DNA of 21,628 nucleotides from Elainellaceae cyanobacterium (GTDB taxonomy: Bacteria > Cyanobacteriota > Cyanobacteriia > CAKZMO01), in NCBI GenBank assembly GCA_050331615.1, contig JBHJGR010000153.1:1-21628 (forward strand), given 5' to 3'. Position numbers and translations under genes: made by a program. The notes under the pieces were generated by a model that saw only the letters and a program-made list of their open reading frames with translations, did no database searches and was not told where the DNA came from. Shown one piece after another: positions 478 to 21,628 of this stretch; the first letter of the stretch is position 1; each line of letters starts with the position of its first letter.

Positions 478-1491
478 TTATTCGGCAGGCGCTTCCAGGG
501 TGCGGCTCAGGTTCAGAACCTCAAGCAGACCCAGGCCAGAAACGTCGTTGGTAGCGTAAACCGTACCAACAGTGCCGTTCTCAACCAGCTCCATTCCGCG
601 GCTGTAGGCTTCAGGAGACAGGGCGACATAGCCCACATCAGCAACAACGTCGGCAGCGTTGCCCAGGTAGAAGTCTACGAAGGAAGCAACTTCAGGGCGC
701 TCAAGGGCATCCTGACGCACGTAGATGAAGATAGGACGGGACAGGGGGGTGTAGGTGCCGTTGTCAACGGTTTCAGGGGATGGCTTAACACCGTCAACAG
801 CAACGGACTGAAGCCGATCCTGGTTCTCAATGTAGTAGGCATAGCCAAAGTAGCCCAGCGCATTGGGGTCGCCCTCAACACCGATAACGAGGATGTTGTC
901 GTCTTCGCTGGCGGTGTAGTCGCTGCGGCTAGCACCCTCTTCGCCGACGATCTCATCGGTGAAGTAGTCGAAGGTACCGGAGTCAGTACCGGGGCCATAT
1001 AGGGTCAGCGGGCGGTCGGGCCAGGAGGAATCAATTTCGCTCCAGTTGTTGACGCCCTGGGAATCGGGGCTCCAAATTGCTGCTAGCTGCTCAACGGTCA
1101 TCTCGGTTGCCCAGTCGTTCTCAGGGTGAATCACAACCGTGATGGCATCGTAGGCAACAGGAATTTCGATGTACTCGATACCAGCCTCAGCGCAAGCCTG
1201 CATTTCTTCAGGCTTGATGGGTCGAGAAGCGTTGGAAATGTCGGTTTCACCTCCACAGAACTTGCTGAAGCCACCGCCGGTGCCGGAAACGCCAACCGAA
1301 ATGTTGGTGCCGGGGTTTGCCGTGATGAACTCTTCAGCCATTGCCTCGGTGATGGGATACACCGTGCTGGAGCCGTCAATCGCGATCGACTGAGCCGATG
1401 CAGCGCTAGTAGACAATCCGAGGACGGATGCGGTTGCTGCGATCGCCAGCGCGACCCGGTCAAGCTTAAATGAATTTCCGTTCGCCACCAT
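478..1491 (-). CDS. PstS-family periplasmic phosphate-binding protein (PBP-like_2 fold, ABC-transporter substrate-binding component).
   Basis: A 337-aa ORF. It has an N-terminal signal peptide ([18 protein letters not shown]) and the motifs [17 protein letters not shown] and ISNASRPIK that are typical of PstS/SphX-like phosphate-binding proteins. Confidence 0.85.
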
Positions 1492-1550
1492 ACAACACTC
1501 TCCAGAGCGTAAGATTACTCAAAAACAATCCAGAGGTAAGTTAGCTGGTC

Positions 1551-1614
1551 AGGATTAAGAATGGTTAATGTAAAGTGTTTGCAAAGGTTAGGAAGTAGTT
1601 ATGAAATGGTTAAG
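1551..1614 (-). promoter_or_regulatory. Pho-box-like repeats of the SphR/PhoB type in the promoter of the PstS-like gene.
   Basis: Read on the gene-sense (minus) strand, there are three 8-bp repeats, CTTAACCA, CATAACTA and CCTAACCT. Their plus-strand coordinates are 1607-1614, 1596-1603 and 1585-1592, giving exact 11-bp periodicity. Two further repeats, ATTAACCA and TTAATCCT, lie at 1562-1569 and 1551-1558. All match the cyanobacterial Pho-box consensus PyTTAAPyPy(T/A) and sit 60-125 bp upstream of the start codon at 1491. Confidence 0.45.
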
Positions 1615-1723
1615 AGAACTTAGCGAGGCAGATTAGATCCACCTTCGCGAGTGGGAGACAGCGATCGCCACATCTAATTCCTTTGTTGGAACTTTTTGCC
1701 AGATTTTTGCCAGACTTAAGGAG

Positions 1724-1796
1724 TTATAGCCCTACGGGCTAAGGTTTGAGTGTGGACCCCAGCGGCGCGGGGGTCCACACCTCTTGAATGTCCCAA
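1724..1796 (+). repeat. Dispersed 75-bp repeat element, copy A. It has an internal 11-bp-stem hairpin (gtgtggacccc ... ggggtccacac).
   Basis: The sequence tatagccctacgggctaaggtttgagtgtggaccccagcggcgcgggggtccacacctcttgaatgtcccaat is about 85% identical to 14338-14414 in the same orientation. Confidence 0.6.
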
Positions 1797-1809
1797 TTTG
1801 CTCAAGCCC

Positions 1810-2235
1810 TTATTCGATCGCCAGAGAAACGCGACCGCCGCCGATGTCCCGCATGGTTACCAGCAGCTCGGCAACCTCGTCATAATTCAGCTCGCGATCG
1901 GCCTTGAGCCGCACGTAGCCGTCGGGATTCTCCGTCAGATAGTCCCGCATGGCCGTCGCTAGCTGTTCCTCTGCGATGGGCTCATCTTCAATCAAAATCT
2001 CACCCTGGATATTGAGACCGATGACCAGCGGCGGCGTGGAAATATCTTCTTGGGTGATGTCGCTTTCGCCCCCCTCCCCCACGTCGGGCGCGTCCACCGT
2101 CAAAATTTGCTGGCTGCTCAGACCCATCGAGATGATGATGAAAAAGGTCAAGACGGTCATCAGCACGTCCATCATGGGCACCAGGTTGACCTCCGGCACC
2201 TCCGAGGCAAATCGGCGGGAGTTACGTGACTTCAT
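1810..2235 (-). CDS. exbD: ExbD/TolR-family biopolymer transport protein.
   Basis: A 141-aa ORF beginning MKSRNSRRFASEVPEVNLVPMMDVLMTVLTFFIII. It has the ExbD single-TM topology and a conserved C-terminal region. Its start overlaps the stop of the upstream exbD by 4 bp (ATGA). Confidence 0.85.
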   Translation of the reverse strand: MKSRNSRRFASEVPEVNLVPMMDVLMTVLTFFIIISMGLSSQQILTVDAPDVGEGGESDITQEDISTPPLVIGLNIQGEILIEDEPIAEEQLATAMRDYLTENPDGYVRLKADRELNYDEVAELLVTMRDIGGGRVSLAIE

Positions 2236-2657
2236 GACGATTCCTCAATGGCCAGGGAGACGCGATCGCCCCCAATTTCCTTCATGCTCAGCAAAAAGGC
2301 GAGCACCTCCTGGTAGGGCATTTCCCGGCTGGCGGTGAGGTAAACCAAGCCGTCCTCGCTCTCCGAGAGATACGCCTGGATGCGCTGCTCCACTTCCCCC
2401 GAAGAAACGGGCTGATCCTCGATCAGGATCTGCCCCTGGGGTCCAAGGGACACGATCAGCGGCGGCGGCGGTTCCTCCTGCTCGGGCTGCTCCACCGGAG
2501 CATCGGCATCGGCTGGAAGCTGCACCTCTACCCCCCGCTGACTGCCCAAGGTCATGGTGATAATAACGAAAAAGGCCAGCACCCCCAGCATGACGTTCAG
2601 CATGGGGATCAGGTTGACGGGCGGCAAAGGGGATTCTTGTCGCGATCGCAGGCGCAT
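2232..2657 (-). CDS. exbD: ExbD/TolR-family biopolymer transport protein, second paralog. I trimmed the start to the ATG at 2657 (MRLRSRQESPLPPVNLIPMLNVML); the ORF track gives 2696.
   Basis: The sequence is paralogous to the adjacent exbD. The trimmed start aligns with the N-terminus of that paralog. Confidence 0.8.
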   Translation of the reverse strand: MRLRSRQESPLPPVNLIPMLNVMLGVLAFFVIITMTLGSQRGVEVQLPADADAPVEQPEQEEPPPPLIVSLGPQGQILIEDQPVSSGEVEQRIQAYLSESEDGLVYLTASREMPYQEVLAFLLSMKEIGGDRVSLAIEESS

Positions 2658-2750
2658 GGGTCTATACAGAAATTTCTGTAGGCAAATTAACGGCATGTAG
2701 GGGCAAATGGCCTTTTGCCCTTACCAGGATGGACGACACCCACAAGTCAA

Positions 2751-3437
2751 TTACCGATGGGGCAGCAGGTTAGCCTCCTCCGGCGAGATAGAATCGTGGC
2801 TAGTTTGGCGGTAGATTAGCTCCAGCTCAGTGCCAGCCTCAGAGAAATAATCGATTTGCTGGGCCTGCAGGGTGACAAACAGGCGGAAAAATACCAGGGC
2901 CAGAATCGCTACCAGCATGCCAGCAGCGGTCGTAATCAGGGCTTCCCCAATGCCAGCGGCGGCGAGCTGTCCGCCTTCGCCTGCGCTCCCACCGCCAATG
3001 TCCAGGTTGTTAAACGTGACAATCAAGCCAGTGACGGTGCCCAGCAGCCCCAAGAGGGGAGCAAGCGCCACCACGGTTTCCAGAAACTTGTCCCCCTTGC
3101 GCATCTGCACAAACTCGCGATCGGCAGCAGATTCCAGGGCCAGCCGAAAGGTTTCAGGGTTCGACTGCTTGAGCCGCAGCGGAGCCAGTAGAAAGCGCCC
3201 AATCGCTAGGTGCTGGGCCTGTTCGGCGATCGCCCGTGCCTCGCTCAGGTTATAGCGGGCCGCCTCCAGAACGTCGTGAACCACCCGGTCTTCCTGACTC
3301 AGCAAACGGAACCAGAACCAGCCCCGCTCCAAGGCAGTGGCCAGGGTCATCACCGACAGGGCCAACAGGGGGATCATTACTGGCCCACCTTTGACCACCA
3401 AATCAAGCACGGGAAAGCGTTCGAGAAGCTCAGCCAT
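2751..3437 (-). CDS. exbB: MotA/TolQ/ExbB proton-channel family protein.
   Basis: A 228-aa ORF. It has the LGLLGTVTGLI and EALITTAAGMLVAILALVFFRLF segments characteristic of ExbB/TolQ. Confidence 0.9.
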   Translation of the reverse strand: MAELLERFPVLDLVVKGGPVMIPLLALSVMTLATALERGWFWFRLLSQEDRVVHDVLEAARYNLSEARAIAEQAQHLAIGRFLLAPLRLKQSNPETFRLALESAADREFVQMRKGDKFLETVVALAPLLGLLGTVTGLIVTFNNLDIGGGSAGEGGQLAAAGIGEALITTAAGMLVAILALVFFRLFVTLQAQQIDYFSEAGTELELIYRQTSHDSISPEEANLLPHR

Positions 3438-3597
3438 TTTTGAACGTCGTGAGGATAGAGATCTCTCTGTAGAATACCTGAGATATTATGACGACTCGTT
3501 AAGGAGGGGTTATGATTCCCTCACTCTCATGACCTATCGAAAAATCTCGGTAGGGGTTTGGGAAATCGAAACCTCGCCGGAGTTTTTGGGCCAGTTC

Positions 3598-4989
3598 TCA
3601 GACGGGCAGCACCCGGCCCCGCAGCCCCGGCGGCGGCTCCAGCCCATAGCGGTGGAGCAGGGTGGGCACAATGTCGTAAAGCTGGGCACCGTCGAGCACC
3701 TGGCCGTTTTGCGGACGCTGGGGATCGTGGAAGATCATCAGCCCGAAGGGAGCATGATTCGCGTCGTCGGGGCCAGTGTCATTTTCGGTCGTGTAAATGG
3801 AGCCAATGCCGACGCTGCCCACCGATCGCCAGGCCAGATCATCGAAGTAAACAATCAGGTCTGGCGCTAGCCCCCGCACCCGCTGGTAGATGTCCTGAGG
3901 CTTGAAGGCTTTCACGTTGAGGGGCTGGCCTGCTGGGTCCGTGAGGCTTTCCAGTTGGGCAATCAGGCGCGATCGCACCGCCTCATACTCCGACAGTGGT
4001 ACGATGCCCTGCGGCTCCCGCCCCTTCACGTTGAGAAAAATTCGGGCATAGTAGCCCCCCGCTCCCCAGACCTGGGTTTGGCTCCAGTCCACCTCGACTT
4101 TATCGAGGGGGGTGGGCGTATCGGGCACCTCCTTAACCATGAGATAGCCGTTGGCCATCAGCCACTCATTGATGCAAATGCCGCCCATGAGGGGACGCGC
4201 CCCGTGGTCGGACACCACCAGCACTGCCGTATCGTCATCGCACTGGGATAGGAGGGTGCCGATGTGCTGGTCCACGTGGCAGTAGTAGTCGTGAATGGCG
4301 CTGGCATAGGGGGAACCGGGTTCATGCTGGGGATGGTGGGGGTCCATCGGCTTCCAAAAAGAGTGATGAATGCGATCCACCCCCATGTCTACCAGCATGA
4401 GGAAGTCGGGCTGGTCCTCGGCCAGCAGCTTGGCGGCGAGGCGAAAGCGCTGGTCGCACAGGTCGTAGATGTTTTTTAGGATACGGTCTTTATCATGGGA
4501 GCGGAACTGGGGCACATCCAGCATGAAGTTGGGCAGCCACTGGTGGATGTGCTGGGCTAGCTCGGGCGGATGGGTGAAGGGAGCTTCGGTATTGGGCGTC
4601 AGGAAGCAGGACACCAGGGAGCCATTGACCTCATAGGGAGGCGAGGTGCCGGGAACGCTGAGCACCGCTACCCGCCAGCCGGCATCCCCTAGCAGATCCC
4701 AAAGACGCGGCACCTGGACGGCTCGACCGTCAGAAATAGCCATATTGTGGTACTGGCGATCGCGCCGATTGCGAAAGCCATAGATGCCCAATTCCCCTGG
4801 GTCGCGCCCACTCATCATGCAGCTCCAGGCTGGGACGGTAATCGCTGGAATGCTGCTCTCCAGCCGCCCATAGCTGCCCACTGTCATCAGCCGGGATAGA
4901 TTTGGCAAATCCTGCCGCCACTGCTCAAATACCAGCGACGGCTCCATGCAATCCAGCCCAATGATGACCAGGCGTGGCGCTTTAGACAT
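3598..4989 (-). CDS. Type I phosphodiesterase / nucleotide pyrophosphatase (NPP) family protein of the alkaline-phosphatase superfamily. The start is trimmed to the ATG at 4989.
   Basis: It starts MSKAPRLVIIGLDCMEPS. Motifs are TVPAWSCMMSGRDPGELGIYG (an NPP-type Thr nucleophile region) and LVVSDHG. The longer ORF-track start would overlap lgt. Confidence 0.8.
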   Translation of the reverse strand: MSKAPRLVIIGLDCMEPSLVFEQWRQDLPNLSRLMTVGSYGRLESSIPAITVPAWSCMMSGRDPGELGIYGFRNRRDRQYHNMAISDGRAVQVPRLWDLLGDAGWRVAVLSVPGTSPPYEVNGSLVSCFLTPNTEAPFTHPPELAQHIHQWLPNFMLDVPQFRSHDKDRILKNIYDLCDQRFRLAAKLLAEDQPDFLMLVDMGVDRIHHSFWKPMDPHHPQHEPGSPYASAIHDYYCHVDQHIGTLLSQCDDDTAVLVVSDHGARPLMGGICINEWLMANGYLMVKEVPDTPTPLDKVEVDWSQTQVWGAGGYYARIFLNVKGREPQGIVPLSEYEAVRSRLIAQLESLTDPAGQPLNVKAFKPQDIYQRVRGLAPDLIVYFDDLAWRSVGSVGIGSIYTTENDTGPDDANHAPFGLMIFHDPQRPQNGQVLDGAQLYDIVPTLLHRYGLEPPPGLRGRVLPV

Positions 4990-5006
4990 AACTCCCGTTC
5001 CCCATG

Positions 5007-5837
5007 TTAGACCCTCGCTTCCCGTCGACGTCGCCAGTACAGCGCCCCAGCGGCTCCGATGACGGCGGCGGCGCTCAATACATGCACCAGGTTGAACGGC
5101 GTACCGGGAAAGAACCAAGAATCGGTACGCAAAAACTCGATCCAGAAGCGCCCAAAGGGATACCAGAGCAAGTAGAGCAGGACAATGTCGCCGGGCCGCA
5201 GTTGCCGCTCGAATCGGCGCGAAATCCAGAAAATTAGGCCAAATCCAATGAAGTTCCAGAGGGATTCGTAGAGAAATAGGGGATGAAAGCGAACGCTTTC
5301 GGGATAGGTGGTCAAGTCGTCGTAGGGGCTAATGCGCCGATTGGGGTCAATGCGCAAGCCCCAGGGCAGGTTGGTCGGCGGACCGTAGAGTTCCTGGTTG
5401 ATAAAATTCCCCCAGCGACCGATCGCCTGGGCCAGGGGCAGCGCCAGCCCAATGGCGTCTAGATACAGCAGAGTTGGGAGCTTCCGCAGCCGGGTGTAGA
5501 GAAATAGCGCCAACCCACCAAACAGAAATGCGCCGAATATATGGATGCCGCCGCTCCAAACCCTGAGAATTTCCCCTGGATTTTGCAGGTAGTAGCCGAT
5601 ACCATCTTCGCTGCGGGGTGACTGAATAAAGACGTAATAGAGTCGTGCACCGATGAACGCCGGAATCAACACCCAGATCAGCATGTCCCAAAAGTCTTCG
5701 GCGCTCTGCCCCCGACGCTGGATGTAGCGGCTGGCTATCGTTGCGCCAACTAGAATCGCCGTCACCATGAGCAGGCCATACCAGCGCAGCGACAGCGGAC
5801 CAAACTCGAAAATGATGGGATCGACGGGTGGATACAT
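5007..5837 (-). CDS. lgt: Prolipoprotein diacylglyceryl transferase.
   Basis: A 276-aa polytopic membrane protein. It begins MYPPVDPIIFEFGPLSLRWYGLLM and carries GGIHIFGAFLFG and WGNFINQELYG, all typical Lgt signatures. Confidence 0.9.
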   Translation of the reverse strand: MYPPVDPIIFEFGPLSLRWYGLLMVTAILVGATIASRYIQRRGQSAEDFWDMLIWVLIPAFIGARLYYVFIQSPRSEDGIGYYLQNPGEILRVWSGGIHIFGAFLFGGLALFLYTRLRKLPTLLYLDAIGLALPLAQAIGRWGNFINQELYGPPTNLPWGLRIDPNRRISPYDDLTTYPESVRFHPLFLYESLWNFIGFGLIFWISRRFERQLRPGDIVLLYLLWYPFGRFWIEFLRTDSWFFPGTPFNLVHVLSAAAVIGAAGALYWRRRREARV

Positions 5838-6052
5838 GAACCTTGCCTTAGCCAGAGATTAAGTCGGGCACCGCGAGCGTTGCCCTGAGGTCTAGCCTAC
5901 CAAATGCTGGCTGGGTAGAAGGATGCCCTGCGGGGGCTTTTTGCGGCTCAGGTGTGTCAAGGATGTGGAAAATTTGGGGATTTCCAAGCAGCCTAGGCTA
6001 GATTCGGACGAGGGTAGTTGCGCTGGCTAAGCACTTGCTTAGAGCGATCGCC

Positions 6053-6310
6053 TCACAGAGCAGAGTAGTGGTCTTGGCAGGAGCGAGCGTTGTCGAGACG
6101 GTCCTTACCTCCTAAGCAGGATTCGGATCGTTGCACCAGCGAAATGGGGATGACAACCGCCCACAGAGCTGCGGCTATGGCAACCACAGTCCACGAAGCT
6201 CGGTCGGTGTTGGGAGTAGAGGTGTCCCTCAGGAAGTCGAGGGTCAACACGACGGCAAATATGAGGGCGATCGCGAGATAAGCCAAGACAAAGATGGATG
6301 AAGCTGTCAT
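6053..6310 (-). CDS. Hypothetical small membrane protein with two predicted TM helices.
   Basis: An 85-aa ORF with an ATG start. It is transcribed divergently from the crp-like gene. No RBS is evident. Confidence 0.3.
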   Translation of the reverse strand: MTASSIFVLAYLAIALIFAVVLTLDFLRDTSTPNTDRASWTVVAIAAALWAVVIPISLVQRSESCLGGKDRLDNARSCQDHYSAL

Positions 6311-6571
6311 GGGAGTCGGATATCTCTGCTTACAACAAGTAGCGAGACGACCATTTTAAACTTTTTGTTCTCTAACGGTGAAAATTTGATTTATTTTTAT
6401 AGAAGCATAGAATTCTCGACTGGCAGCTTTCTCATACATATCAAGGTTTTAGCTGATTAGGCTCTAATTCAAGAAGATTTCGAATGAAGTCAAATCAAGC
6501 TGGAATAATCCCCTAATGCACCTGAGCTTCGTGGCAGAATTAGGATAGGTCCTAACGTCAGGAGAACCGGC

Positions 6572-7363
6572 ATGGCAGCGAAAGCCAAGCAGCCTAAGCG
6601 GGGGGACGTTGCCACCCAGCTCACTCAGAGTAACGCCCTTTTCAGAGGTCTAGATGCGTCCTGGCTTTCAAGCTACCTGCCCGCCGATCAGGTGACCCAG
6701 GAAAAGCTCTATTCCAATCGCCCGATCTACACTGCCTTTCGGCCAAATTCTCATCTCGAGCACCTCTATGTCGTTCTCGATGGCGGTCCAGTTGTTATCC
6801 GTAGCACGCCCCTCGACCGCATCATCGCGCTGACCTACCCTGGGGGATGTTTTGGCGCACAAAACTTACCCTTCAGCCACGGGCTGGTGTTGCGAGGGTT
6901 TCCCAGCCTGGTAGAAGCCTATAAAACTACCGACGTGCTCAAAATTCCCGTGGCGCTTGTTGAAGCAATTCACCACGAGAACGAGCTGTTTCGCCAGCGC
7001 TTTGACCTGCTGTTTGAGCTGCGGGAAAAGTTCCAGTATCATCTGCTGAACTGCAGCACCTATCCTCCCCAGGCAGTGGCGGCTCTGCTGCGGGCGCTTA
7101 TCTATCAGGAGCGATCGCTCGGCAGCCAGCCTGAACCCGACGGGACCTACCGGTTCGACCTACCGGTTGATCTCATTGCCCGCGCCAGTCAGCTCAACCA
7201 CCGCACCGTTGAACAGGTGCTCAAGGGCATGACTCAGGTGGGTCTGCTAAAATCCAGTAAATCAGATGCCAGCGGCGACTTGCTGCGCATTGTCGATCCA
7301 GAGGGCATGAAGGAGGTCTATGGGGCAACCCGCGATAAGGTGTCCTGGTGGCCCCTGAAATGA
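6572..7363 (+). CDS. Crp/Fnr-family transcriptional regulator: a cNMP-binding-like domain followed by a C-terminal HTH.
   Basis: AGGAGAA sits 6 nt upstream of the ATG. The cNMP-binding-like region runs FRGLDASW...LYVVLDGGPVVIRS...GGCFGAQNL. The C-terminal HTH is LIARASQLNHRTVEQVLKGMTQVGLL. Confidence 0.6.
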   Translation: MAAKAKQPKRGDVATQLTQSNALFRGLDASWLSSYLPADQVTQEKLYSNRPIYTAFRPNSHLEHLYVVLDGGPVVIRSTPLDRIIALTYPGGCFGAQNLPFSHGLVLRGFPSLVEAYKTTDVLKIPVALVEAIHHENELFRQRFDLLFELREKFQYHLLNCSTYPPQAVAALLRALIYQERSLGSQPEPDGTYRFDLPVDLIARASQLNHRTVEQVLKGMTQVGLLKSSKSDASGDLLRIVDPEGMKEVYGATRDKVSWWPLK

Positions 7364-7368
7364 GTCTG

Positions 7369-7521
7369 CTAGGGGCGATCGCTCTCCGCTGCGCTAACCT
7401 CTTCTACGTCTCTAGCATCCTGCCGCGCTTCCAGCACCAGGGTTCCCACAACGTATATGCCAAACAGGGCCAGCACGCTCAGCAACACCGCCATCACGGT
7501 ATTGCTTGGTCTCTTTTTCAT
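7369..7521 (-). CDS. Possible small single-TM protein of 50 aa (MKKRPSNTVMAVLLSVLALFGIYVVGTLVLEARQDARDVEEVSAAESDRP). It is not in the ORF track.
   Basis: GGAGG lies 10 nt upstream of the ATG at 7521. The N-terminus is hydrophobic. The call rests on sequence inspection only. Confidence 0.25.
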   Translation of the reverse strand: MKKRPSNTVMAVLLSVLALFGIYVVGTLVLEARQDARDVEEVSAAESDRP

Positions 7522-7593
7522 GGTGGCTATGCCTCCGTCGTCACAATGCCCTGTCAGGGGTGACGCCCTGCAAGCGGCGTCCTGAAATTCTAG

Positions 7594-7627
7594 TTGGCTT
7601 CGTGGACGTGAACGTCCACGAAGCCGC
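7594..7627. terminator. Perfect 13-bp-stem, 4-nt-loop hairpin (ggcttcgtggacg tgaa cgtccacgaagcc) lying between convergent genes. It is probably a transcription terminator or an RNA-stability element.
   Basis: A direct inverted repeat in the sequence. It lies 25 bp downstream of the stop of the 7652-8296 gene. No U-tract follows. Confidence 0.4.
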
Positions 7628-7651
7628 TAAATCGCCCAGGTTCTATAGGTC

Positions 7652-8296
7652 CTAGTTAATGAACACCTGACCATCGGGCTGGATGCGGATGACGCCTTGG
7701 GTGTCGTCAAGCCCCTGGTCTTCTTCGATGGAAATTTCCAGCATTCCGTCGGTAGTGCTCGTAATGATGTCCACCAGCCCCTCGTCCTGCCGGACCGTCG
7801 TAATCGTTGCGGGCACAGAAATACCCTGCAGGGTTGCTTCTTCCTGAGCCTGGAGGTAGCGGCGCTGGGTTTCGCCGGTAACCTCGTAGGTGATCAGGGC
7901 ATTGGTGTCATTCATAATGCGCACATCAACCGTGCCATTCGTCGGCGGCACGACAGCAACCGGCGGCAGATCAACGGCGACTCCATCGGGACCGTACTCA
8001 ACGCCAGATCCCTGAGGCACTGTCTGCATAGGCATGCCATCCATGCCGGCGCTAGCTGAAGCACCTTGGGTTTCTCCTACCAAACGGCTGTATTCATTGA
8101 GGGGGCAACCTTCGGGAACAAGTAGGTTAGAGCTAAATGGCTCTTCGTAGTAAATTCCAGGACAGGGATTGACGCCGGGCGTCTGTGCAGCTGCTTTCTG
8201 GACCACAGAGGCTCCTGCAAGTAGGCTACCTGCAGCGATACCAAGCAGTCCAGCCGAGCGAATATGTTTGATGATGGGCAAAGAGGTAAAACTCAT
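7652..8296 (-). CDS. Secreted hypothetical protein with a signal peptide and an acidic Thr/Gly/Asp-rich mature region. The start is trimmed to the ATG at 8296.
   Basis: The signal peptide is MSFTSLPIIKHIRSAGLLGIAAGSLLAGASVVQKAAAQ. An AGGAAA SD-like repeat sits directly upstream. I recognised no domain. Confidence 0.55.
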   Translation of the reverse strand: MSFTSLPIIKHIRSAGLLGIAAGSLLAGASVVQKAAAQTPGVNPCPGIYYEEPFSSNLLVPEGCPLNEYSRLVGETQGASASAGMDGMPMQTVPQGSGVEYGPDGVAVDLPPVAVVPPTNGTVDVRIMNDTNALITYEVTGETQRRYLQAQEEATLQGISVPATITTVRQDEGLVDIITSTTDGMLEISIEEDQGLDDTQGVIRIQPDGQVFIN

Positions 8297-14982: not shown

Positions 14983-15762
14983 ATGTCTGTCCCTGCTGTT
15001 CAATCCACACCAGTTCCCCCCGCATCAGCTCTGCCGGAAGACCTGGTGTTGCCGCCCAGTGAGCCCTACAGCGATGAACCCCCCTTGGAAAGCTCCCTCC
15101 ACCTCCAGCAACTCCTGCTGCTGCTGAAATGCCTGGACTGGCTCTGGAAAGATCGCAACGACTACTTCACCGCCGGGAACCTGACGATTTACTACAGCCC
15201 CCACCAGCGCAAGTCCGAGGACTTCCGTGGCCCCGATCTTTTCGTGGTGCTGGGTGCGGAGAAGCGGCCCCGCAACAGTTGGGTGGTGTGGCATGAAGGG
15301 GGGCTGTATCCCCATGCGATTATTGAACTGCTGTCAGACTCAACCGCCAAGACCGACCGGGGGCTGAAGAAAGACATCTATCAAGACATCTTCCGCACGC
15401 CGGACTACTTCTGGTTTCATCCCCACACGCTAGAATTCGAGGGCTTCCATCTGGCTGACGGCACTTACCAGCCCATTCCCGTGAACGAGCAGGGCTGGCG
15501 CTGGAGTCAGCAGCTCCAGCTTTATCTGGGCGTCTACGAGAACCAACTGCGGTTTTTCACCGCTGAAGGCGTGCTGGTGCCCACCCCTGAAGAGTCGGCG
15601 GCAGCCGAGCGCCAGCGGGCCGACGCTGAATACCAGCGAGCGGAAGCCGAACGTCAGCGGGCCGAAGCCGAACGTCAACAGACTGAAGCTGAACGCCAGC
15701 GCAATGAGCGGTTGGCTGCCCGACTGCGGGAGCTGGGCGTGAACCCCGATGATGTCCTGTAG
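14983..15762 (+). CDS. Uma2-family (DUF820) PD-(D/E)xK endonuclease with a C-terminal AERQRAEAERQ coiled-coil repeat.
   Basis: The conserved blocks are NLTIYYSP..PDLFVVLG...WVVWHEGG.YPHAIIELLSDST...D...K..IYQDIFRTPDYFWFHP. The C-terminus has (AERQRAE) repeats followed by LRELGVNPDD, typical of cyanobacterial Uma2 proteins. Confidence 0.85.
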   Translation: MSVPAVQSTPVPPASALPEDLVLPPSEPYSDEPPLESSLHLQQLLLLLKCLDWLWKDRNDYFTAGNLTIYYSPHQRKSEDFRGPDLFVVLGAEKRPRNSWVVWHEGGLYPHAIIELLSDSTAKTDRGLKKDIYQDIFRTPDYFWFHPHTLEFEGFHLADGTYQPIPVNEQGWRWSQQLQLYLGVYENQLRFFTAEGVLVPTPEESAAAERQRADAEYQRAEAERQRAEAERQQTEAERQRNERLAARLRELGVNPDDVL

Positions 15763-15795
15763 CTGGTGTGAGTTAGCGGATGGGTGGAGGTGGCC

Positions 15796-17601
15796 ATGAT
15801 CGGACAGGTGTTGGGCGATCGCTACGAAATTCGCGAGCAGCTGGGCAAAAAGGCCGGACGGCAAACCCTGCTGGCCTGGGATCGGCAGGAGGAGCAGCCG
15901 GTGGTGATCAAGCTACTCAGCTTCAGCCAGGAGTTTGTCTGGGATGACCTGAAGCTGTTTGAGCGGGAGGCAGAAACTCTGCGCAGCCTTTCCCATCCCT
16001 GCATCCCCCGCTATCTGGACTTCTTTGAGATTGCCCAGCCCCCGGCCCATCGTTTTGCCCTGGTGCAGAGCTATGCGGCGGGGAAGTCCCTGGACGCTCA
16101 CCTCAAAGCGGGCCGCAGCTTCCAGGAGGCGGACGTGACCCAGTTGGCCGCCGCCCTGCTGGAAATTCTGGTCTACCTGCACGGCTGTCACCCGCCCGTG
16201 ATTCACCGCGACATCAAGCCCAGCAATATTCTGCTGAGCGATCGCCCCAACAACTCCGTGGGAGACGTGCATCTGGTGGACTTTGGCTCGGTGCAAACCC
16301 TGGCCGCCACCGAAGGAGGCACCATTACCATCGTCGGCACCTACGGCTACATGCCGCCAGAGCAGTTTGGCGGGCGCACCAGCCCCGCTTCGGACCTGTA
16401 TGGTCTGGGAGCGACGCTGGTTTACCTGGTGACGGGACGCCACCCGGCGGATCTGCCCCAGCGGCATTTGCGGCTGGAGTTTGAGCCGTTTGCCGACCTC
16501 AGCCCCGGCCTGATGCGGTGGCTGGCGCGGCTGGTGGAGCCGAGCGTGGAGCGGCGATTTACCTCGGCGACAGTGGCTTTGAAGAAGCTGGAATCCCTTT
16601 CCCAGCCCATGCCCGTGTGGGTGGAGCAGCCGGTCCAGACCGAGCAGGAGACGGTGGCGATCGCCCAACCGCCCCACAGCCAGATCAAGCTCTCCCGATC
16701 CGCCAACCGACTCACTATCCAGTTTCCCGCCAAGCTGACGGAGAAAACCCCCGACCCTTCCCCCCTGTTTCGCCGTAGCGGGTTATGGCTGGCGGCGTCG
16801 GTCTGTCTCTTCGTGGTGCAGCCAGAATTTCTGGTGTTTCTCCTGTGCATCTGGGGCGGCGGCGTAGGCACCGAAAAGCTGGTTTTGAAGCGGCTCACCC
16901 GCTCCCACTCCCACTCCCAAACCCTGACCATTGATTCCCAGCAGGTCACCCTCGATCGCTACGAAAACGGCGTCCTCCAATCTTCCCAATCCAGCCCCCG
17001 CAAGTCCCTGGCCGGGGTGGAGTATTGCTGTAGCCACGAAGGCTACCATTCCCTGGGGCTCTGGGGCGATCGCCGCTATGAGTTTGGCAGCAGTGAGATG
17101 GTTTCCGGTGCCGACCTGCGGTGGCTGGCCCAGGAGCTGGGCACTTGGCTCTCCATCCCCGTGCAGCACACCAACCACCACCTGCCCCTGCCCAAGGCCC
17201 TGTTCCGCAAAGGTCCGCCCAAGCTGATAGCCAAACCGACTCCCGTGGAGAAACCGGCCAGCAGTGCGATCGTCCTGCTGAAGCGCCCTGGCTGGATTGA
17301 CATCCTGGTGCCCCTCGACACCGCTTCAACCACCGACGCCTACACCCGCCTCTACATCGACCACCAGCAAATCCACCAAACCTATGCCTCTGGAGACGAT
17401 CCGCCCCCCAGTATGCGGGTGGCCATCCGGGCGATCGAGTACCACAGCAGCGACGAGGGCGGCGGCTTTCTGCGCATCTGGGCCGGTAAGCAAAACTACG
17501 ACCTGGGCAAGGATGAACCCCTATCGCCGGAGGAACTGCGGTGGCTGGTCTATGAGCTGGGGCAGTGGCTCAGGGTACCGATTTATCGGACGCATTTGTG
17601 A
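15796..17601 (+). CDS. Hanks-type Ser/Thr protein kinase with a C-terminal tandem-duplicated uncharacterised module. The start is trimmed to the ATG at 15796.
   Basis: GGAGG lies 5 nt upstream of the ATG at 15796. The kinase motifs are VIKLL (the conserved Lys region), HRDIKPSNILL, DFGS and GTYGYMPPEQ. The C-terminal 300 aa holds two homologous modules, each ending in LRWLxxELGxWLxxP. Confidence 0.85.
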   Translation: MIGQVLGDRYEIREQLGKKAGRQTLLAWDRQEEQPVVIKLLSFSQEFVWDDLKLFEREAETLRSLSHPCIPRYLDFFEIAQPPAHRFALVQSYAAGKSLDAHLKAGRSFQEADVTQLAAALLEILVYLHGCHPPVIHRDIKPSNILLSDRPNNSVGDVHLVDFGSVQTLAATEGGTITIVGTYGYMPPEQFGGRTSPASDLYGLGATLVYLVTGRHPADLPQRHLRLEFEPFADLSPGLMRWLARLVEPSVERRFTSATVALKKLESLSQPMPVWVEQPVQTEQETVAIAQPPHSQIKLSRSANRLTIQFPAKLTEKTPDPSPLFRRSGLWLAASVCLFVVQPEFLVFLLCIWGGGVGTEKLVLKRLTRSHSHSQTLTIDSQQVTLDRYENGVLQSSQSSPRKSLAGVEYCCSHEGYHSLGLWGDRRYEFGSSEMVSGADLRWLAQELGTWLSIPVQHTNHHLPLPKALFRKGPPKLIAKPTPVEKPASSAIVLLKRPGWIDILVPLDTASTTDAYTRLYIDHQQIHQTYASGDDPPPSMRVAIRAIEYHSSDEGGGFLRIWAGKQNYDLGKDEPLSPEELRWLVYELGQWLRVPIYRTHL

Positions 17602-17620: not shown

Positions 17621-17881
17621 CTACAGCCCAAGGCGTTGCTTGGCCTCATCCCAACTCATAGTTTCTCCCTGCTCAGCCTGAGAGATGCTGGCCTGGAGCT
17701 GACCAGTAAACTCGTTATCAGCCAAAATATCCAGCGTTTCAAGCAGGGAGGCAAACTGTTCGTAGCTCACTGCCGCCATGACGGGTTGACCATCCTGGGT
17801 GATGATGATGGGCTGGGCTGTGAGCTTTTGGGGTAGCTCTAACAGTTGTTGCTGTGCTTCAAGAATCGTGAGACGGTCCAT
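17621..17881 (-). CDS. Phd/YefM-family type II antitoxin, with no cognate toxin gene downstream.
   Basis: An 86-aa ORF: MDRLTILEAQQQLLELPQKLTAQPIIITQDGQPVMAAVSYEQFASLLETLDILADNEF. It shows the typical Phd/YefM N-terminal fold pattern. Only 20 bp separate its stop from the convergent kinase gene. Confidence 0.7.
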   Translation of the reverse strand: MDRLTILEAQQQLLELPQKLTAQPIIITQDGQPVMAAVSYEQFASLLETLDILADNEFTGQLQASISQAEQGETMSWDEAKQRLGL

Positions 17882-17963
17882 TTGCCTAACCTCGCTTACA
17901 GCCCGTAAGAAATGCTACATACCCAGCGTATAGCACCGTCGAGGCGATCGCCCTTATCGCACC

Positions 17964-19400
17964 TTAGAGTATCCCCGCAATCAGCGGCAGCAGCTTGTTC
18001 ACCGCCTGCACAAATTTGGTGGCATCCGGCAGGGTCTGGGCCATGCGGTTGAGGGTGCGGCTGGCCCTGGCGAGGACGGACTGGCGGGCTTCGGGTTCGT
18101 CGGACTGGGCAGCAGTGGCGATCGCCCCCACCGCTTCTTCGGCATCGGGTTTCTCTTCGGCGGGCAGGTTGGGGTCGGTTTGGATGGCCTCCAGCAGTTC
18201 CGTGAGGTAGGCTTTGAGGTCGTTACCCGCTGCGGTCGGAGGAATCTGGTTGAGGGCGTTGGTGACGGTGCCGCTGATGTCTCCTAGATTAAGGGCAGCA
18301 CCGCTGGCGGTAAAATCGCCGCCCACGTTGCCAATTTTGATATTGCGGCTGGAGTCGGAGCTGTTGGTCATGGCTTTACCTTCTGCGATCGCTTTAACAT
18401 CTACTGTAGTTGGATTGAGCGTGAGGTTAATCTGATGCGACTGACTAGCGCCCAATTGACCTATGACATTTATGAGGTTTGAGTTTTGTTCACGGACAGA
18501 TTCTAACTGCTTTAGGTTATCGTTGTATCTCGACTCTAAAGCTCTGGTAGCCATTTCATAAGTACGAATCAATTCACTGATGACTTTATCCCGGTCAAAC
18601 TCCTGGGGTATTTTGACCTTAATAACTACGGTTCCGTCTTCCCTCGTTTCTATACCTCTTACATCTATCTCAATCCCTTCATTCTCAACGATTACCTTTT
18701 GAAAAGAGTATTGTACAGCTTGCCAATCTACCCCATCTGGAAAGGGAATACTAATTGTATCGGTAGTCCTACTTGCCCGATTCTCTAGGTATTCCCGTGT
18801 CCGCTGAGGTAAGACAATATTCTCGACTGCAACGCGTGTAATTTTTATTCCCCAAGTTGCAGTGGCTTCGTCAAGGCTATCCATCATACTACGTTCTATC
18901 TCGTCGCGAGACGAGAGAACATTTTCTAGGGGTGTACGATTAATAAGAGCACGTAGGTGCGGTACGATAACGTTTTTGCATGCCTCTTCAGAATCTTCGA
19001 TGGTGTAATACGTTTGCTGCATTTCAAGCATTCGCCAGTAGGCAACAACGCTCACTTGGATTGAGAAGTTATCCTTTGTAATAGCCTCTAGTGGTTGAAC
19101 CTCCATAATCATCTCTCGTGTGGTTCCTACCCATACGATCCGATCGATGCCAGGAACGATGAAGCTTATTCCTGGTGTTAATTTGCGATGATAACGCCCA
19201 AACCTCTGAACAATTGCCTCATAGCCTTGATCTATCACTCTGGCGGAGATGAAAGTATAGCCGACTAAAAAAAGAGCCAGAACCGCAACTAAGGCAATGG
19301 GACTGGATAAATAGACGAGATAAACGATTGCAGCGGTAATGCCAGCTAGCACGACGAATCGGAATAAGACGCCCATGATGGAAGGATAAAGGCTATTCAT
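17964..19400 (-). CDS. SPFH/Band-7 (stomatin/prohibitin-like) membrane protein. It has a long C-terminal extension carrying a module shared with the next gene upstream. The start is at the ATG at 19400 (MNSLYPS).
   Basis: Two N-terminal TM helices are followed by an SPFH domain (VIDQGYEAIVQRFGRYHRKLTPGISFIVPGIDRIV...TKDNFSIQVSVVAYWRM...LRALINRTPLENVLSSRDEI). The extension contains DGVDWQAVQYSFQKV...VVIKVKIPQEFDRDKV...SSDSSRNIKIGNVGGDFTASGAALNLGDISGTVTNALNQ. Confidence 0.8.
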   Translation of the reverse strand: MNSLYPSIMGVLFRFVVLAGITAAIVYLVYLSSPIALVAVLALFLVGYTFISARVIDQGYEAIVQRFGRYHRKLTPGISFIVPGIDRIVWVGTTREMIMEVQPLEAITKDNFSIQVSVVAYWRMLEMQQTYYTIEDSEEACKNVIVPHLRALINRTPLENVLSSRDEIERSMMDSLDEATATWGIKITRVAVENIVLPQRTREYLENRASRTTDTISIPFPDGVDWQAVQYSFQKVIVENEGIEIDVRGIETREDGTVVIKVKIPQEFDRDKVISELIRTYEMATRALESRYNDNLKQLESVREQNSNLINVIGQLGASQSHQINLTLNPTTVDVKAIAEGKAMTNSSDSSRNIKIGNVGGDFTASGAALNLGDISGTVTNALNQIPPTAAGNDLKAYLTELLEAIQTDPNLPAEEKPDAEEAVGAIATAAQSDEPEARQSVLARASRTLNRMAQTLPDATKFVQAVNKLLPLIAGIL

Positions 19401-19521
19401 CAAGAACAAGCTCTTGGGTTGAATACACTGCTGGGTTAAGTGCTGCTGATCGGTACCTCAGTATTGGCTCACAGATCCAGATATGTCCAGCTCGCAAAGC
19501 ATTACTCTTTAGCAGCAATAT

Positions 19522-21414
19522 TTAGTCTAGTTTACCTTCATTGCTGCAATCGGTTTCAGGTGATGCTGAGGATTGGTCAATCGTGTTGGTTACGCTACCG
19601 CTTACGTCTCCTAGGTTGAGAGCTGAGCCGCTAGCATTGAGGTTACCTCCAACGTCGCCAATCTTGGTCTCGCGGGAAGAATCTGAACTGTCGCTCTTAG
19701 CTTTACTATCTGAATGGCTCTCAGAAGTGACGTTGAAAACTTGTGAAACCGGCCCTACAACCATTAGAGCCTTTTCCAAGCTATCGGCACGTCTCCGCTC
19801 CCCTTCCAATAAACCGGCAGTACGAGCCGCTTCAAGCCTAGCTTCAATAACCTCATCAAAATCTCGCTCCAGATTCCCCTTATCAGTGCCAGGTGGAATC
19901 TGGACAGTCACCAGCATGTCATCGCCCTTTTTCTCGACTGCCTGCACGGCGTCAGAAGCAATATCGTACTCCTCCATCACCTTCTGAAAAGCTGCCTGGA
20001 AATCGTCAGCCGTTGCACCATGCCGGATCAGAAGCTGAACGGTGTCCATAACTTCCTTAAAATATTTCTCGAAGTCACCCGGTTGGAAAACCTTATCAGG
20101 ACTATGGGGGCGGCGTTCCCGGCTACCCATCTCATCGGGGTGCTCCAGCAAAAAGACAAACTGGCAGTCCACGTGATCCAGGACGGTAGTGTGATCAATG
20201 TTCCAGCCCTGCAAGCAGGCTCCCGTCAGGTAGGCGTGGGTGAAGTCAGCGTCGATACAGAGGGTTTCTGTGAGGTTGGCCTCTTTGAGGTTGGCGGCCT
20301 TGAGAGTCGCCCCACTGAGGTCGGCCCATTTGAAGTTGGCCCCCTCCAGGTTTGCACCGCTGAGGTTGGCCCCCCGTAGGTCGGCGTCGATGTAGGACTG
20401 CCGGTAGCCGTTGAGGGTGGTCAGGAGCTTCAGCACGTTGAGGTCAGCGAGGATGGTGTCGCCGGGGCGAGCGCGATCGAGCTTGAGGGCGTCTTTGAAG
20501 CAGGTGCGGGTGAGGGTGGCGGCGCGGAAGTTGGTGCTTTTGAGCTGAGCGTGGCTGAAGTTGGCGTCAGTGAGGTCGGCTTTGTAGAAGGAGGTGCCGC
20601 CTAGAGCGCCGAAGGCTAAGCCAAAGCTGCGGATCACAAAGAATTTAGGATCGCCCTTTAGGGCATGTCGAGCGACGTAGGTTCCTAACCCGGCGAGTGA
20701 GACTGCAAATGCACCCCCGACTATAATCGCCGCCGAGACTGAAAATGCAGCGAATATGGCTGCAAATGCGCCTATGGCTATGAATACACCTGCGATTGTC
20801 ACCGCACTTGCAACTGCGTCTGCTCCTACTCCTGCACCCACGACTGCACTTGCGAAGGGGATAGCGGCTGTGACGGCGACAGCGATTAAGATGGCTCCTG
20901 AAATAGCAACAGCAACTGAGCTTGAGCCTACGATTGCGACTATAACTGCGACTGTGGCTGCGATTGTGCCAACTAGGGCAACGGTGCCCAATAACTTTCT
21001 GGTGAAACCTTCTCGGGCGATCGCAATAACCATTCCAACAGTGATGATAATTTCGGTCACCGAGCGAGCGGCATACTTTATAGGTTGTTCAGAACTGAGG
21101 GCAAAATTAACGGTCTTGTCGATTGAGAAAGCAAGATACATACCCGTCAACTCTGCCCCAACAAACTGAATAACAGCAATTAAAACAAACGACGCAACCA
21201 ACTGCCCCACCACCCATCGCATTTGCAGCCCCGCCTTCGCGCCGCTAAAGTTCACCCCCATCAGCGTCGCCCCGGCAAAGTTCGCCCCGCGAATATCCGC
21301 CCCGCTCAGATTGGCTCCGCTCAGGTTTTGTCCCTTGAAGTTGCCACCGCGCAGGTTTGCGCCGCTGAAGTCGCGTTCTCCTTGGGCATAGCGGGTGAGG
21401 AGGGGGTGGGGCAT
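19522..21414 (-). CDS. Polytopic pentapeptide-repeat membrane protein. It has N-terminal pentapeptide repeats (PRPs), a block of about six Ala/Gly/Val-rich TM helices, a second PRP region and a C-terminal module shared with the SPFH gene. The start is trimmed to the ATG at 21414 (MPHPLLTRY).
   Basis: The PRP stretches are GANLRGGNFKGQNLSGANLSGADIRGANFAGATLMGVNFSG and ADLRGANLSGANLEGANFKWADLSGATLKAANLKEANL. The end of the repeats reads CLQGWNIDHTTVLDHVDCQFVFL, followed by ERRPHSPDKVFQPGDFEKYF...FQKV...LVTVQIPP...SSDSSRETKIGDVGGNLNASGSALNLGDVSGSVTNTIDQ. Confidence 0.75.
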   Translation of the reverse strand: MPHPLLTRYAQGERDFSGANLRGGNFKGQNLSGANLSGADIRGANFAGATLMGVNFSGAKAGLQMRWVVGQLVASFVLIAVIQFVGAELTGMYLAFSIDKTVNFALSSEQPIKYAARSVTEIIITVGMVIAIAREGFTRKLLGTVALVGTIAATVAVIVAIVGSSSVAVAISGAILIAVAVTAAIPFASAVVGAGVGADAVASAVTIAGVFIAIGAFAAIFAAFSVSAAIIVGGAFAVSLAGLGTYVARHALKGDPKFFVIRSFGLAFGALGGTSFYKADLTDANFSHAQLKSTNFRAATLTRTCFKDALKLDRARPGDTILADLNVLKLLTTLNGYRQSYIDADLRGANLSGANLEGANFKWADLSGATLKAANLKEANLTETLCIDADFTHAYLTGACLQGWNIDHTTVLDHVDCQFVFLLEHPDEMGSRERRPHSPDKVFQPGDFEKYFKEVMDTVQLLIRHGATADDFQAAFQKVMEEYDIASDAVQAVEKKGDDMLVTVQIPPGTDKGNLERDFDEVIEARLEAARTAGLLEGERRRADSLEKALMVVGPVSQVFNVTSESHSDSKAKSDSSDSSRETKIGDVGGNLNASGSALNLGDVSGSVTNTIDQSSASPETDCSNEGKLD

Positions 21415-21460
21415 GGGATTTTGGATTTTGGATTGGGGATTTTGGATTGGGGGGTTGGAT
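21415..21460 (-). repeat. STRR1-like heptamer array directly 5' of the ATG at 21414 (ccaatcc aaaatcc ccaatcc aaaatcc ATG on the minus strand).
   Basis: On the plus strand the sequence is ggattttggattggggattttggattgggg. It is related to the array at 13262-13295. Confidence 0.6.
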
Positions 21461-21519
21461 GGGTGATTGGCATCCGGTAGGGGCGATGCATTCGGCAGGG
21501 ACGTTGTCGTCACCTGCAA

Positions 21520-21628
21520 AACGTTCTGGCCGAATGCATCGCCCTTACAACCGTGGATGAGAGGCAAAACGCCTATAAACGTTCTGGCCGAATGCATCGC
21601 CCTTACAACCGTGGATGAGAGGCAAAAC
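21520..21628. repeat. Perfect 51-bp direct repeat in two copies separated by 7 bp. The array may continue past the window end. Each unit contains the right arm of a 16-bp inverted repeat whose left arm lies at 21482-21497.
   Basis: The unit aacgttctggccgaatgcatcgcccttacaaccgtggatgagaggcaaaac occurs at 21520-21570 and again at 21578-21628. The arm gggcgatgcattcggc at 21482-21497 is the reverse complement of gccgaatgcatcgccc within each unit. Confidence 0.7.

Follow-up and report, generated by a model that had tools for sequence, protein, structure and literature searches.

The stretch of DNA analysed here (the window) comprises positions 1 to 21,628 of contig JBHJGR010000153.1 from Elainellaceae cyanobacterium (assembly GCA_050331615.1), 21,628 nucleotides in all. 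Three open reading frames (ORFs) on its minus strand form the locus under study. The first encodes a membrane protein with pentapeptide repeats (PRPs), referred to as the PRP protein (19522-21414, 630 aa), which belongs to a large cyanobacterial family. The second encodes an SPFH/Band-7 protein (17964-19409, 481 aa from a TTG start codon, or 478 aa from an ATG at 19400). The third is a solo gene for a Phd/YefM-family antitoxin (17621-17881, 86 aa, PF02604). An original prediction, made from the letters alone, had read these genes as an uncharacterised membrane system, with a microdomain scaffold and a channel-like effector held together by a common C-terminal domain and possibly governed by the antitoxin-like protein. 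The three co-oriented genes are present, and 82 bp separate the SPFH stop from the Phd start as had been stated; the gap between PRP stop and SPFH start, predicted as 113 bp, measures 112 bp to the TTG or 121 bp to the ATG, and the Phd stop lies 19 bp, not 20 bp, from the stop of a convergent Ser/Thr kinase gene (15784-17601, plus strand). No terminator-like site was found in the gap between the PRP and SPFH genes or in that between the SPFH and Phd genes. We show that the locus encodes two inner-membrane proteins, each with the same cyanobacterial C-terminal module.

The SPFH protein begins with a hydrophobic anchor (aa 6-60), recognised by hydropathy, and a stomatin/QmcA-type SPFH domain (aa 58-212; both within 18774-19394, minus strand). 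A Pfam match to Band_7 (PF01145, E 4.4e-32, aa 58-212) places it in the SPFH/Band-7 superfamily, and over aa 41-212 its closest solved relatives are QmcA (PDB 8z5g, E 1e-26) and stomatin (E about 6e-19). The oligomeric cages of stomatin, QmcA and HflK/C are built by a long coiled coil and a C-terminal cap that follow the SPFH domain. The window protein resembles stomatin/QmcA-NfeD systems in its N-terminal membrane anchor and SPFH domain; however, homology to QmcA and stomatin ends at aa 203-212, just ahead of a domain which we name domA, and a stomatin/QmcA-type coiled coil and cap are absent beyond this point. Thus, in contrast to the QmcA (8z5g) and HflK/C (7vhp) cages and to stomatin, it replaces coiled coil and cap by domA, a helix, a motif and a tail, and the module occupies the place of the coiled coil. 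The surroundings differ from a stomatin/QmcA-NfeD operon as well. The neighbours are genes for a PRP protein, a Phd protein and a kinase, and an NfeD gene is absent from the window, as the original prediction had noted, and also from L085, a near-identical contig that reaches 9.4 kb further.

Within the SPFH protein the first part of the module, domA and a helix of about 50 residues, covers aa 217-322 (18444-18761, minus strand), as delimited by a profile hidden Markov model (HMM) and by an AlphaFold2 (AF2) model of the C-terminus (32 sequences, mean predicted local distance difference test score, pLDDT, of 75). In the numbering of the modelled C-terminus, domA and the helix are predicted as E2-7, H13-26, E33-39, E45-50 and H57-106, with a pLDDT of 72-91. 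The second part is the motif region, aa 323-375, SDSSRNIKIGNVGGDFTASGAALNLGDISGTV... (18285-18443, minus strand), defined by alignments and the AF2 model; it is the best-conserved stretch of sequence, yet disordered in the monomer model. The protein ends with a tail (aa 376-481; 17967-18284, minus strand), a predicted helical bundle of about 85-100 aa with a hydrophobic C-terminus and a pLDDT of about 90. The PRP neighbour has no such tail.

The reading frame of the PRP protein is open over 19522-21597, corresponding to 691 aa. Since the first 61 codons fall within repeat DNA, a 58-bp tandem repeat and a heptamer repeat, and homologues begin at the equivalent of M62, the gene is 19522-21414 and its product 630 aa long, as originally predicted; the 61-codon N-terminal extension is spurious, a product of the repeats. 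Protein P0106 equals the window protein but for one residue. Membership of the pentapeptide-repeat family is evident from Pfam (PF00805, E 2e-35, five stretches), from an AF2 beta-helix with a pLDDT of about 98 and from Foldseek matches to PRP structures (E 9e-9). The domain order that had been described, PRPs, six transmembrane (TM) helices, more PRPs and a conserved end region, is borne out by hydropathy, which reveals a hydrophobic block at aa 124-309 in the 691-aa numbering, and by an AF2 model built from 61 sequences (mean pLDDT 79, predicted template modelling score 0.72). This model contains N-terminal PRP coils, six TM helices, a second PRP beta-helix with a capping linker and a beta-alpha-beta-beta-long-helix domain, whereas the final residues, about 75 in number, are disordered.

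In the 630-aa numbering the N-terminal pentapeptide-repeat coils extend over aa 1-62 (21229-21414, minus strand; Pfam Pentapeptide_3, AF2 pLDDT about 98). The six Ala/Gly/Val-rich TM helices follow at aa 65-252 (20659-21222, minus strand) and are modelled as H65-102, 110-135, 139-164, 167-192, 199-221 and 227-252, with a pLDDT of only 45-55 across aa 161-230. Pfam, alignment and AF2 define the second pentapeptide beta-helix (aa 275-396) and a conserved capping linker (aa 397-456) with the motif TGACLxxWNID...VDCxFVxL...RERRPH...GDFEK (together 20047-20592, minus strand). The first part of the module, domA and the long helix, comprises aa 457-552 (19759-20046, minus strand), according to the domA HMM, the AF2 model (E458-463, H469-483, E490-496, E499-505, H512-552) and BLASTP to the SPFH protein. 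It is followed by the second part, the Gly/Ser/Asn-rich motif SDSSRETKIGDVGGNLNASGSALNLGDVSGSVTNTIDQ (19525-19758, minus strand), identified by alignment and with a pLDDT below 50 in the monomer. The protein terminates 15-20 residues past the motif and is tail-less. Foldseek alignments to PRP proteins of about 215 residues bridge both repeat segments over about 430 query columns, from which we infer that the two segments form one continuous beta-helix and that the TM block is an insertion into it. The six TM helices and the basic residues flanking TM1 and TM6 would place both PRP parts, as well as the C-terminus, in the cytoplasm. A channel-like effector, as had been suggested, finds no support in this Ala/Gly/Val-rich insertion with its low-confidence middle, and the fold search returned PRP proteins only.

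The original prediction of a C-terminal module common to both proteins is correct, but the module is shared only in part. BLASTP aligns aa 217-399 of the SPFH protein with aa 518-689 of the PRP protein (691-aa numbering) over 194 columns with 33% identity (E 1e-13). The complete module, about 180-265 aa in size, consists of domA with its beta-alpha-beta-beta fold, the helix of about 50 residues continuing from it, the Gly/Ser/Asn-rich motif SDSSRKIEIGNVGGDFNASGQALNLGDISGTVTNTINQ and the helical-bundle tail. Domain domA, whose fold is the same in the AF2 models of both proteins, the helix and the motif are common to the two; the tail, about 85 aa, is found in the SPFH protein alone. Sequence conservation is highest in the motif, where the pLDDT falls below 50. 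No Pfam or NCBIfam model covers the module, a Pfam scan at E<=10 gave chance-level matches alone, and no PDB chain is related to it by sequence. Fold searches returned weak ferredoxin-like, Rpb11 or Pcc1-type matches for domA (E>=0.02) and generic four-helix bundles for the tail. In our literature search we found no paper describing the module.

The sole library match was to the PADLOC candidate PDC-M14B, whose C-terminal third aligns with the motif end and the tail. The last 105-120 residues or so of the M14B profiles match the window SPFH protein with an E-value of 2.5e-8; in contrast to the complete candidate, profile positions 161-265 of 267 alone are matched, and there is no match to PDC-M14A. 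PDC-M14 is a computational candidate, on which our literature search found no paper.

Far from being dedicated to the pair in the window, the module is common and promiscuous among cyanobacterial proteins. An exhaustive HMMER search with a 14-sequence profile yielded 2340 cluster representatives (E<=1e-3), of which 417 reach E<=1e-30; the module is found on PRP, SPFH and CHAT proteins and alone. Most of them are proteins of 650-750 aa with the module at the C-terminus, usually in the form PRP-6TM-PRP of about 700 aa, and every named or genome-derived match is cyanobacterial. A scan of species-representative genomes returned 98 loci, of which 80 were kept; all 80 are cyanobacterial, mostly from Nostocales. 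Among 265 fetched proteins, whose architectures were assigned with home-made HMMs, 76 show the long domA-motif-tail form, 11 the SPFH-domA-motif-tail form, about 70 are short motif-tail proteins and a few are tail-less. The full module is found on PRP and SPFH proteins, and the motif-tail part occurs on a CHAT protein (P0140) and alone. The module terminates hundreds of membrane pentapeptide-repeat proteins, and in a minority of cases it replaces the cage-forming C-terminus of a stomatin/QmcA-type SPFH protein.

The slot after PRP-6TM-PRP-domA is itself variable. In metagenome homologues it holds this tail, another helical tail, TIR or CHAT. The TIR version (L163, 60-1505; PF13676, E 3e-21) carries TIR after domA in place of motif and tail, and the CHAT version is represented by L172, with two PRP-CHAT genes in tandem (549-3455 and 4936-7680). 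By Pfam, CHAT also follows domA in P0119 and precedes the motif-tail part in P0140. The second helical tail, unrelated to the first, stands in the same slot after domA and coiled coil in the PRP genes of L130, L138, L169 and L170; it reads …AEIQQLLxxLxxxYP…KQRVIxALKxGGIEA…NPYVNIL…GW and has no Pfam model. In a further protein, P0114 (565 aa), sigma-54 activator-interacting and core-binding domains are followed by coiled coil, motif and tail, which replace the DNA-binding domain. To our knowledge, sigma-54 is lacking in cyanobacteria, and P0114 may be a chimeric assembly. For P0258, a partial protein, the source name suggests a putative GTPase fusion.

The pairing of SPFH and PRP genes is lineage-specific and not a conserved system. 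It recurs solely on L085, a JGI metagenome contig 99.7% identical to the window across 3485 bp. None of seven other independent SPFH-module loci (L001, L002, L007, L084, L086/87, L088, L089/90) has a PRP-module neighbour, and the pairing is likewise missing from more than 110 PRP-module loci. No SPFH gene and no second module gene lies within 10 kb in the 80 genome loci, and the 34 tailed metagenome loci with enough downstream sequence have no SPFH neighbour. At L050 a 58-aa tail fragment is found about 0.7 kb upstream of the PRP-module gene. In Nostocales the PRP-module gene is single and syntenic with aspartyl-tRNA-synthetase-like and other housekeeping genes, as read from their N-termini; this synteny aside, PRP-module genes were found to have no conserved partner gene around them. 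The three-gene unit is hence not conserved, and a new defence or scaffold system as first proposed is not supported.

A different regularity emerges from those PRP-module genes that lack the tail. They are rare. We collected 80 metagenome loci with a profile of the PRP linker and domA and counted those in which the sequence continues for at least 900 bp downstream. The tail-less domA-motif PRP genes are followed by an ORF for module or tail in 6/6 cases, the tailed PRP genes in 0/34. In the Microcoleus locus L091 (5513-8642), likewise, a 622-aa tail-less PRP protein with domA and motif is followed by a 178-aa gene product, consisting of half a domA and a coiled coil, and a 213-aa product with coiled coil, motif and tail. 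This three-ORF arrangement, with a tail-less PRP-module gene, an ORF of about 180-195 aa for half-domA and coiled coil and one of about 213-219 aa for coiled coil, motif and tail, is conserved in a Microcoleus-like clade (L091, L139, L158, L131, L150, L154, L166). The middle ORF of L158 retains a nearly complete tail, which indicates that the arrangement arose from tandem duplication of the module. The window PRP protein shares 41-50% identity with this clade, making the window arrangement at least a second instance. Furthermore, the window SPFH tail is closer to small motif-tail proteins that stand alone (P0004, P0005, P0012; 63-69% identity) than to the tails of other SPFH-module proteins (31-48%). 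Tails thus follow lineage and not architecture, as would be expected for interacting or exchanged adaptors. Sorting domA into a type A and a type B found only partial confirmation and is not relied on here: the window PRP domA is 49% identical to that of the Microcoleus tail-less PRP protein, and the SPFH domA only 26% identical to the Microcoleus middle gene.

Our preferred, though tentative, reading, to which we assign a probability of roughly 45%, is that the lineage-specific SPFH-PRP pair probably co-assembles through the module, which would be an oligomerisation or adaptor device. An oligomerisation role is proposed because the module sits where coiled coil and cap build the cage of stomatin and QmcA; in the SPFH protein it would probably drive assembly of a ring or cage, the motif becoming ordered only between subunits. 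PRP proteins of this family normally hold module and tail in one chain, and the window copy would have lost its tail. It could then dock to the SPFH assembly by module-module contacts while the SPFH protein supplies the tail in trans, a form of complementation suggested by the downstream module or tail genes of the tail-less PRP genes (6/6 against 0/34). The outcome would be a cytoplasmic, membrane-anchored pentapeptide beta-helix tethered to an SPFH scaffold. We accordingly rate the locus as an SPFH scaffold with a putative non-canonical assembly module, next to a member of a family of membrane PRP proteins that have an adaptor-like C-terminus in common. If the module is such a device, it provides a testable handle on a large and functionally opaque family of membrane PRP proteins as well as an alternative mode of SPFH scaffold assembly.

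Several observations weigh against co-assembly. The neighbouring module copies are 29-33% identical and resemble copies in other places more closely, at 55-57% in the case of the SPFH module and 49% in that of the PRP domA, so that neither co-evolution nor a recent duplication is apparent in the window pair. Besides this pair, seven SPFH-module proteins and over 110 PRP-module proteins occur singly; each kind can evidently function by itself. The 6/6 pattern is phylogenetically shallow, five of the six cases coming from the one Microcoleus-like clade with 73-91% identity and one of the six, L110, being merely a frameshifted tail. The arrangement of that clade, a tandem duplication split into ORFs, can also mean gene decay. 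Finally, the inter-subunit structure proposed for the motif draws on its conservation and its low pLDDT alone.

These points lead to the alternative that the two proteins are coincidental neighbours, each forming separate homo-oligomers through its module without any functional link. The SPFH-module gene would have landed here or recombined by module homology, and the missing PRP tail would be a harmless or degenerative truncation. The restriction of the pairing to the window and L085, the solitary state of all other SPFH-module and tailed PRP-module genes and the single, syntenic PRP-module gene of Nostocales agree with this, as does composition. The G+C content of third codon positions (GC3) is 0.44 in the SPFH-domain coding part (18756-19400) and 0.48 in the PRP module (19522-20046), compared to 0.65-0.79 in the housekeeping genes of the window. 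The locus is thus compositionally mosaic, which suggests recent acquisition, foreign origin or recombination and also accords with the lineage-specific arrangement of our preferred reading. Rearrangement at such loci is also indicated by L002, where a 68-aa ORF (867-1073) resembling the PRP N-terminus (phmmer E 4e-13) lies directly upstream of the SPFH-module gene (1004-2497) and overlaps it in another frame, being either the remnant of a PRP gene or part of a frameshifted PRP-SPFH fusion. Yet tail-less PRP-module genes consistently precede a tail-bearing module gene, and the two window genes are co-oriented, 112-121 bp apart and not separated by a terminator-like site. We regard mere coincidence as rather unlikely.

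Another explanation, which we judge unlikely, takes the locus for a conflict or immunity module. PRP-6TM-PRP-domA would be a membrane sensor and the C-terminal slot would carry effectors (TIR, CHAT) or adaptor tails, the latter recruiting tail-bearing SPFH, CHAT and small coiled-coil proteins by homotypic contacts; the window would then hold an SPFH version coupled in trans. Such a design would be similar to the effector-associated domains (EADs) described by Kaur et al. 2020 (PMC7159879). TIR (L163) or CHAT (L172 twice, P0119) after domA and CHAT joined to motif and tail in P0140 speak for it, and the presence of TIR and CHAT in the same slot raises a testable link to cell-death or immunity signalling. 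So do the match of motif and tail to PDC-M14B and the toxin-antitoxin genes adjoining several module genes. In addition, PMC7159879 puts pentapeptide repeats and Band7 among the effector-position domains of vWA-MoxR systems and describes adaptor coupling of neighbouring genes. However, neither the window nor L085 contains an NTPase, vWA, MoxR or STAND gene, and the module has no EAD, Death-like or TRADD-N match in Pfam. Adjacent copies are not mutual closest relatives, contrary to the rule for EADs, and PDC-M14 is a computational candidate matched by the C-terminus of its protein B alone. Moreover, the window context is housekeeping, and in Nostocales the main PRP-module family is represented by a single copy in synteny with aspS-like and housekeeping genes, unlike fast-shuffling defence genes. 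A wider form of this idea, improbable and put forward as speculation, is an undescribed cyanobacteria-wide adaptor network, in which the PRP-6TM-PRP-domA sensor and interchangeable outputs would constitute a membrane signalling system for immunity or programmed cell death. Coupling would occur either in cis, with TIR, CHAT or helical tails, or in trans by homotypic contacts of module and tail; SPFH cages, CHAT proteases and small coiled-coil proteins would be among the outputs, and the window would represent a split, SPFH-coupled version.

The toxin-antitoxin genes near other module genes include a TumA antitoxin (L001) and a RelE/ParE toxin (L003), both above NCBIfam cut-offs; in addition, L084 has a ParE toxin whose partner is weakly ParD-like, and L089 a HepT-like fragment. 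We attribute these neighbours to the density of toxin-antitoxin genes in cyanobacteria. In L003 (1671-2628) the RelE/ParE-family toxin gene (TIGR02683, E 3e-34) lies directly downstream of the PRP-module-tail gene, and the antitoxin position after it is occupied by a protein of 213 aa that ends in a second copy of motif end and tail.

Among described adaptors, EADs and the bacterial Death-like adaptors of conflict systems (Kaur et al. 2020, PMC7159879; 2021, PMC8195603) come closest to the module. They too are small, mostly helical domains on differently built proteins, sometimes encoded by adjacent genes, with partners of PRP, Band7/SPFH, CHAT and TIR type, and they are concentrated in multicellular cyanobacteria. 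In contrast, most module carriers are conserved single genes in housekeeping synteny. One of four EAD hallmarks is seen, namely fusion to varied effector-type domains (PRP, SPFH, CHAT; TIR, CHAT or the second tail in the slot). The other three are lacking: there is no family match, no core NTPase, vWA-MoxR, STAND or GTPase gene in the window or L085, and neighbouring copies share 29-33% identity as compared to 49-69% with copies elsewhere. Identity with TRADD-N, EAD or EACC1 was rejected, since there is no Pfam match and the domain order is unlike that of bacterial TRADD-N proteins; the 50 best Foldseek PDB matches listed do not include TRADD-N. HglK (All0813) of Anabaena PCC 7120 is, like the window PRP protein, a polytopic cyanobacterial membrane protein with pentapeptide repeats. 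Identity with it was rejected on the architecture given in PMC8145042, namely four N-terminal TM segments and then 36 repeats from residue 501 of 727. In the window protein, by contrast, six TM helices are inserted between the repeats, and a non-PRP module comes after them.

The third gene of the locus belongs to the antitoxins by a Pfam match above cut-off to the Phd/YefM domain (PF02604, E 6.3e-9), and an identical protein is annotated in a metagenome-assembled genome of an Elainellaceae cyanobacterium (P0266). As the original prediction had observed, it has no toxin partner. The 19 bp downstream and 82 bp upstream of the gene leave no neighbour gene as cognate toxin, and no toxin gene was found in the window or L085. 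A 68% identical homologue, the nearest informative one, lies in another Elainellaceae genome (L173), in an unrelated neighbourhood, and overlaps by 4 bp with a downstream gene of 107 aa; this gene gives weak ParE/YoeB matches under curated cut-offs (ParE E 0.001). This partner protein left no trace in the window by tblastn. The window gene thus shares with Phd/YefM-YoeB/ParE type II pairs the PF02604 fold and a homologue with an overlapping downstream gene, and differs from them in that the toxin gene is missing. It had been proposed that the Phd-like protein is a DNA-binding regulator, in which case the three genes would be a unit with the SPFH and PRP genes under its transcriptional control. 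It would fit that the Phd gene has no toxin, is co-oriented with the SPFH gene and follows it after 82 bp without an intervening terminator-like site. No Phd homologue, however, occurs near about 170 other module loci, and the L173 homologue sits in an overlapping pair, which together make such a role very improbable. For the same reasons, and given the lack of any toxin trace in the window, we conclude that the gene is most probably the solo, decayed remnant of a toxin-antitoxin pair and no dedicated regulator of the SPFH and PRP genes.

The window surroundings are housekeeping genes (PstS-like, ExbB/ExbD, phosphodiesterase, Lgt, GT4 and MBOAT) and not a defence island. An ordinary housekeeping ExbB-ExbD-ExbD cluster (1810-3437, minus strand) adjoins the gene for a PstS-like periplasmic binding protein (478-1491, minus strand), and these neighbours in particular argue against a defence island. 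Upstream of the PRP gene L085 carries psbV, peroxiredoxin (AhpC), methyltransferase and cobD genes. Rfam gave no match in the window or L085.

Several repeats occupy the intergenic region ahead of the PRP gene (window 21416-21628; L085 8975-9123 and 9348-9610). It contains a perfect 58-bp tandem repeat, interrupted by the window end and present in 2.8 copies in L085, and a run of GGATTTT heptamers; L085 also has a 63-bp repeat in 2.4 copies. The convergent Ser/Thr kinase (15784-17601, plus strand, 605 aa) has a hydrophobic segment and then two C-terminal repeats of about 120 aa, which end ...LRWLAQELGTWLSIPV and ...LRWLVYELGQWLRVPI and are without Pfam match. Its kinase domain gives strong PADLOC matches of PD-T4-6 and Mad6 type, as expected of many bacterial Ser/Thr kinase domains. 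A putative endonuclease of the Uma2 family (14983-15762, plus strand) has a repetitive C-terminal tail, AERQRAEAERQR..., for which a 21/42-bp tandem repeat at 15598-15701 codes. Uma2 genes lie near module genes in L088 and L090 too.

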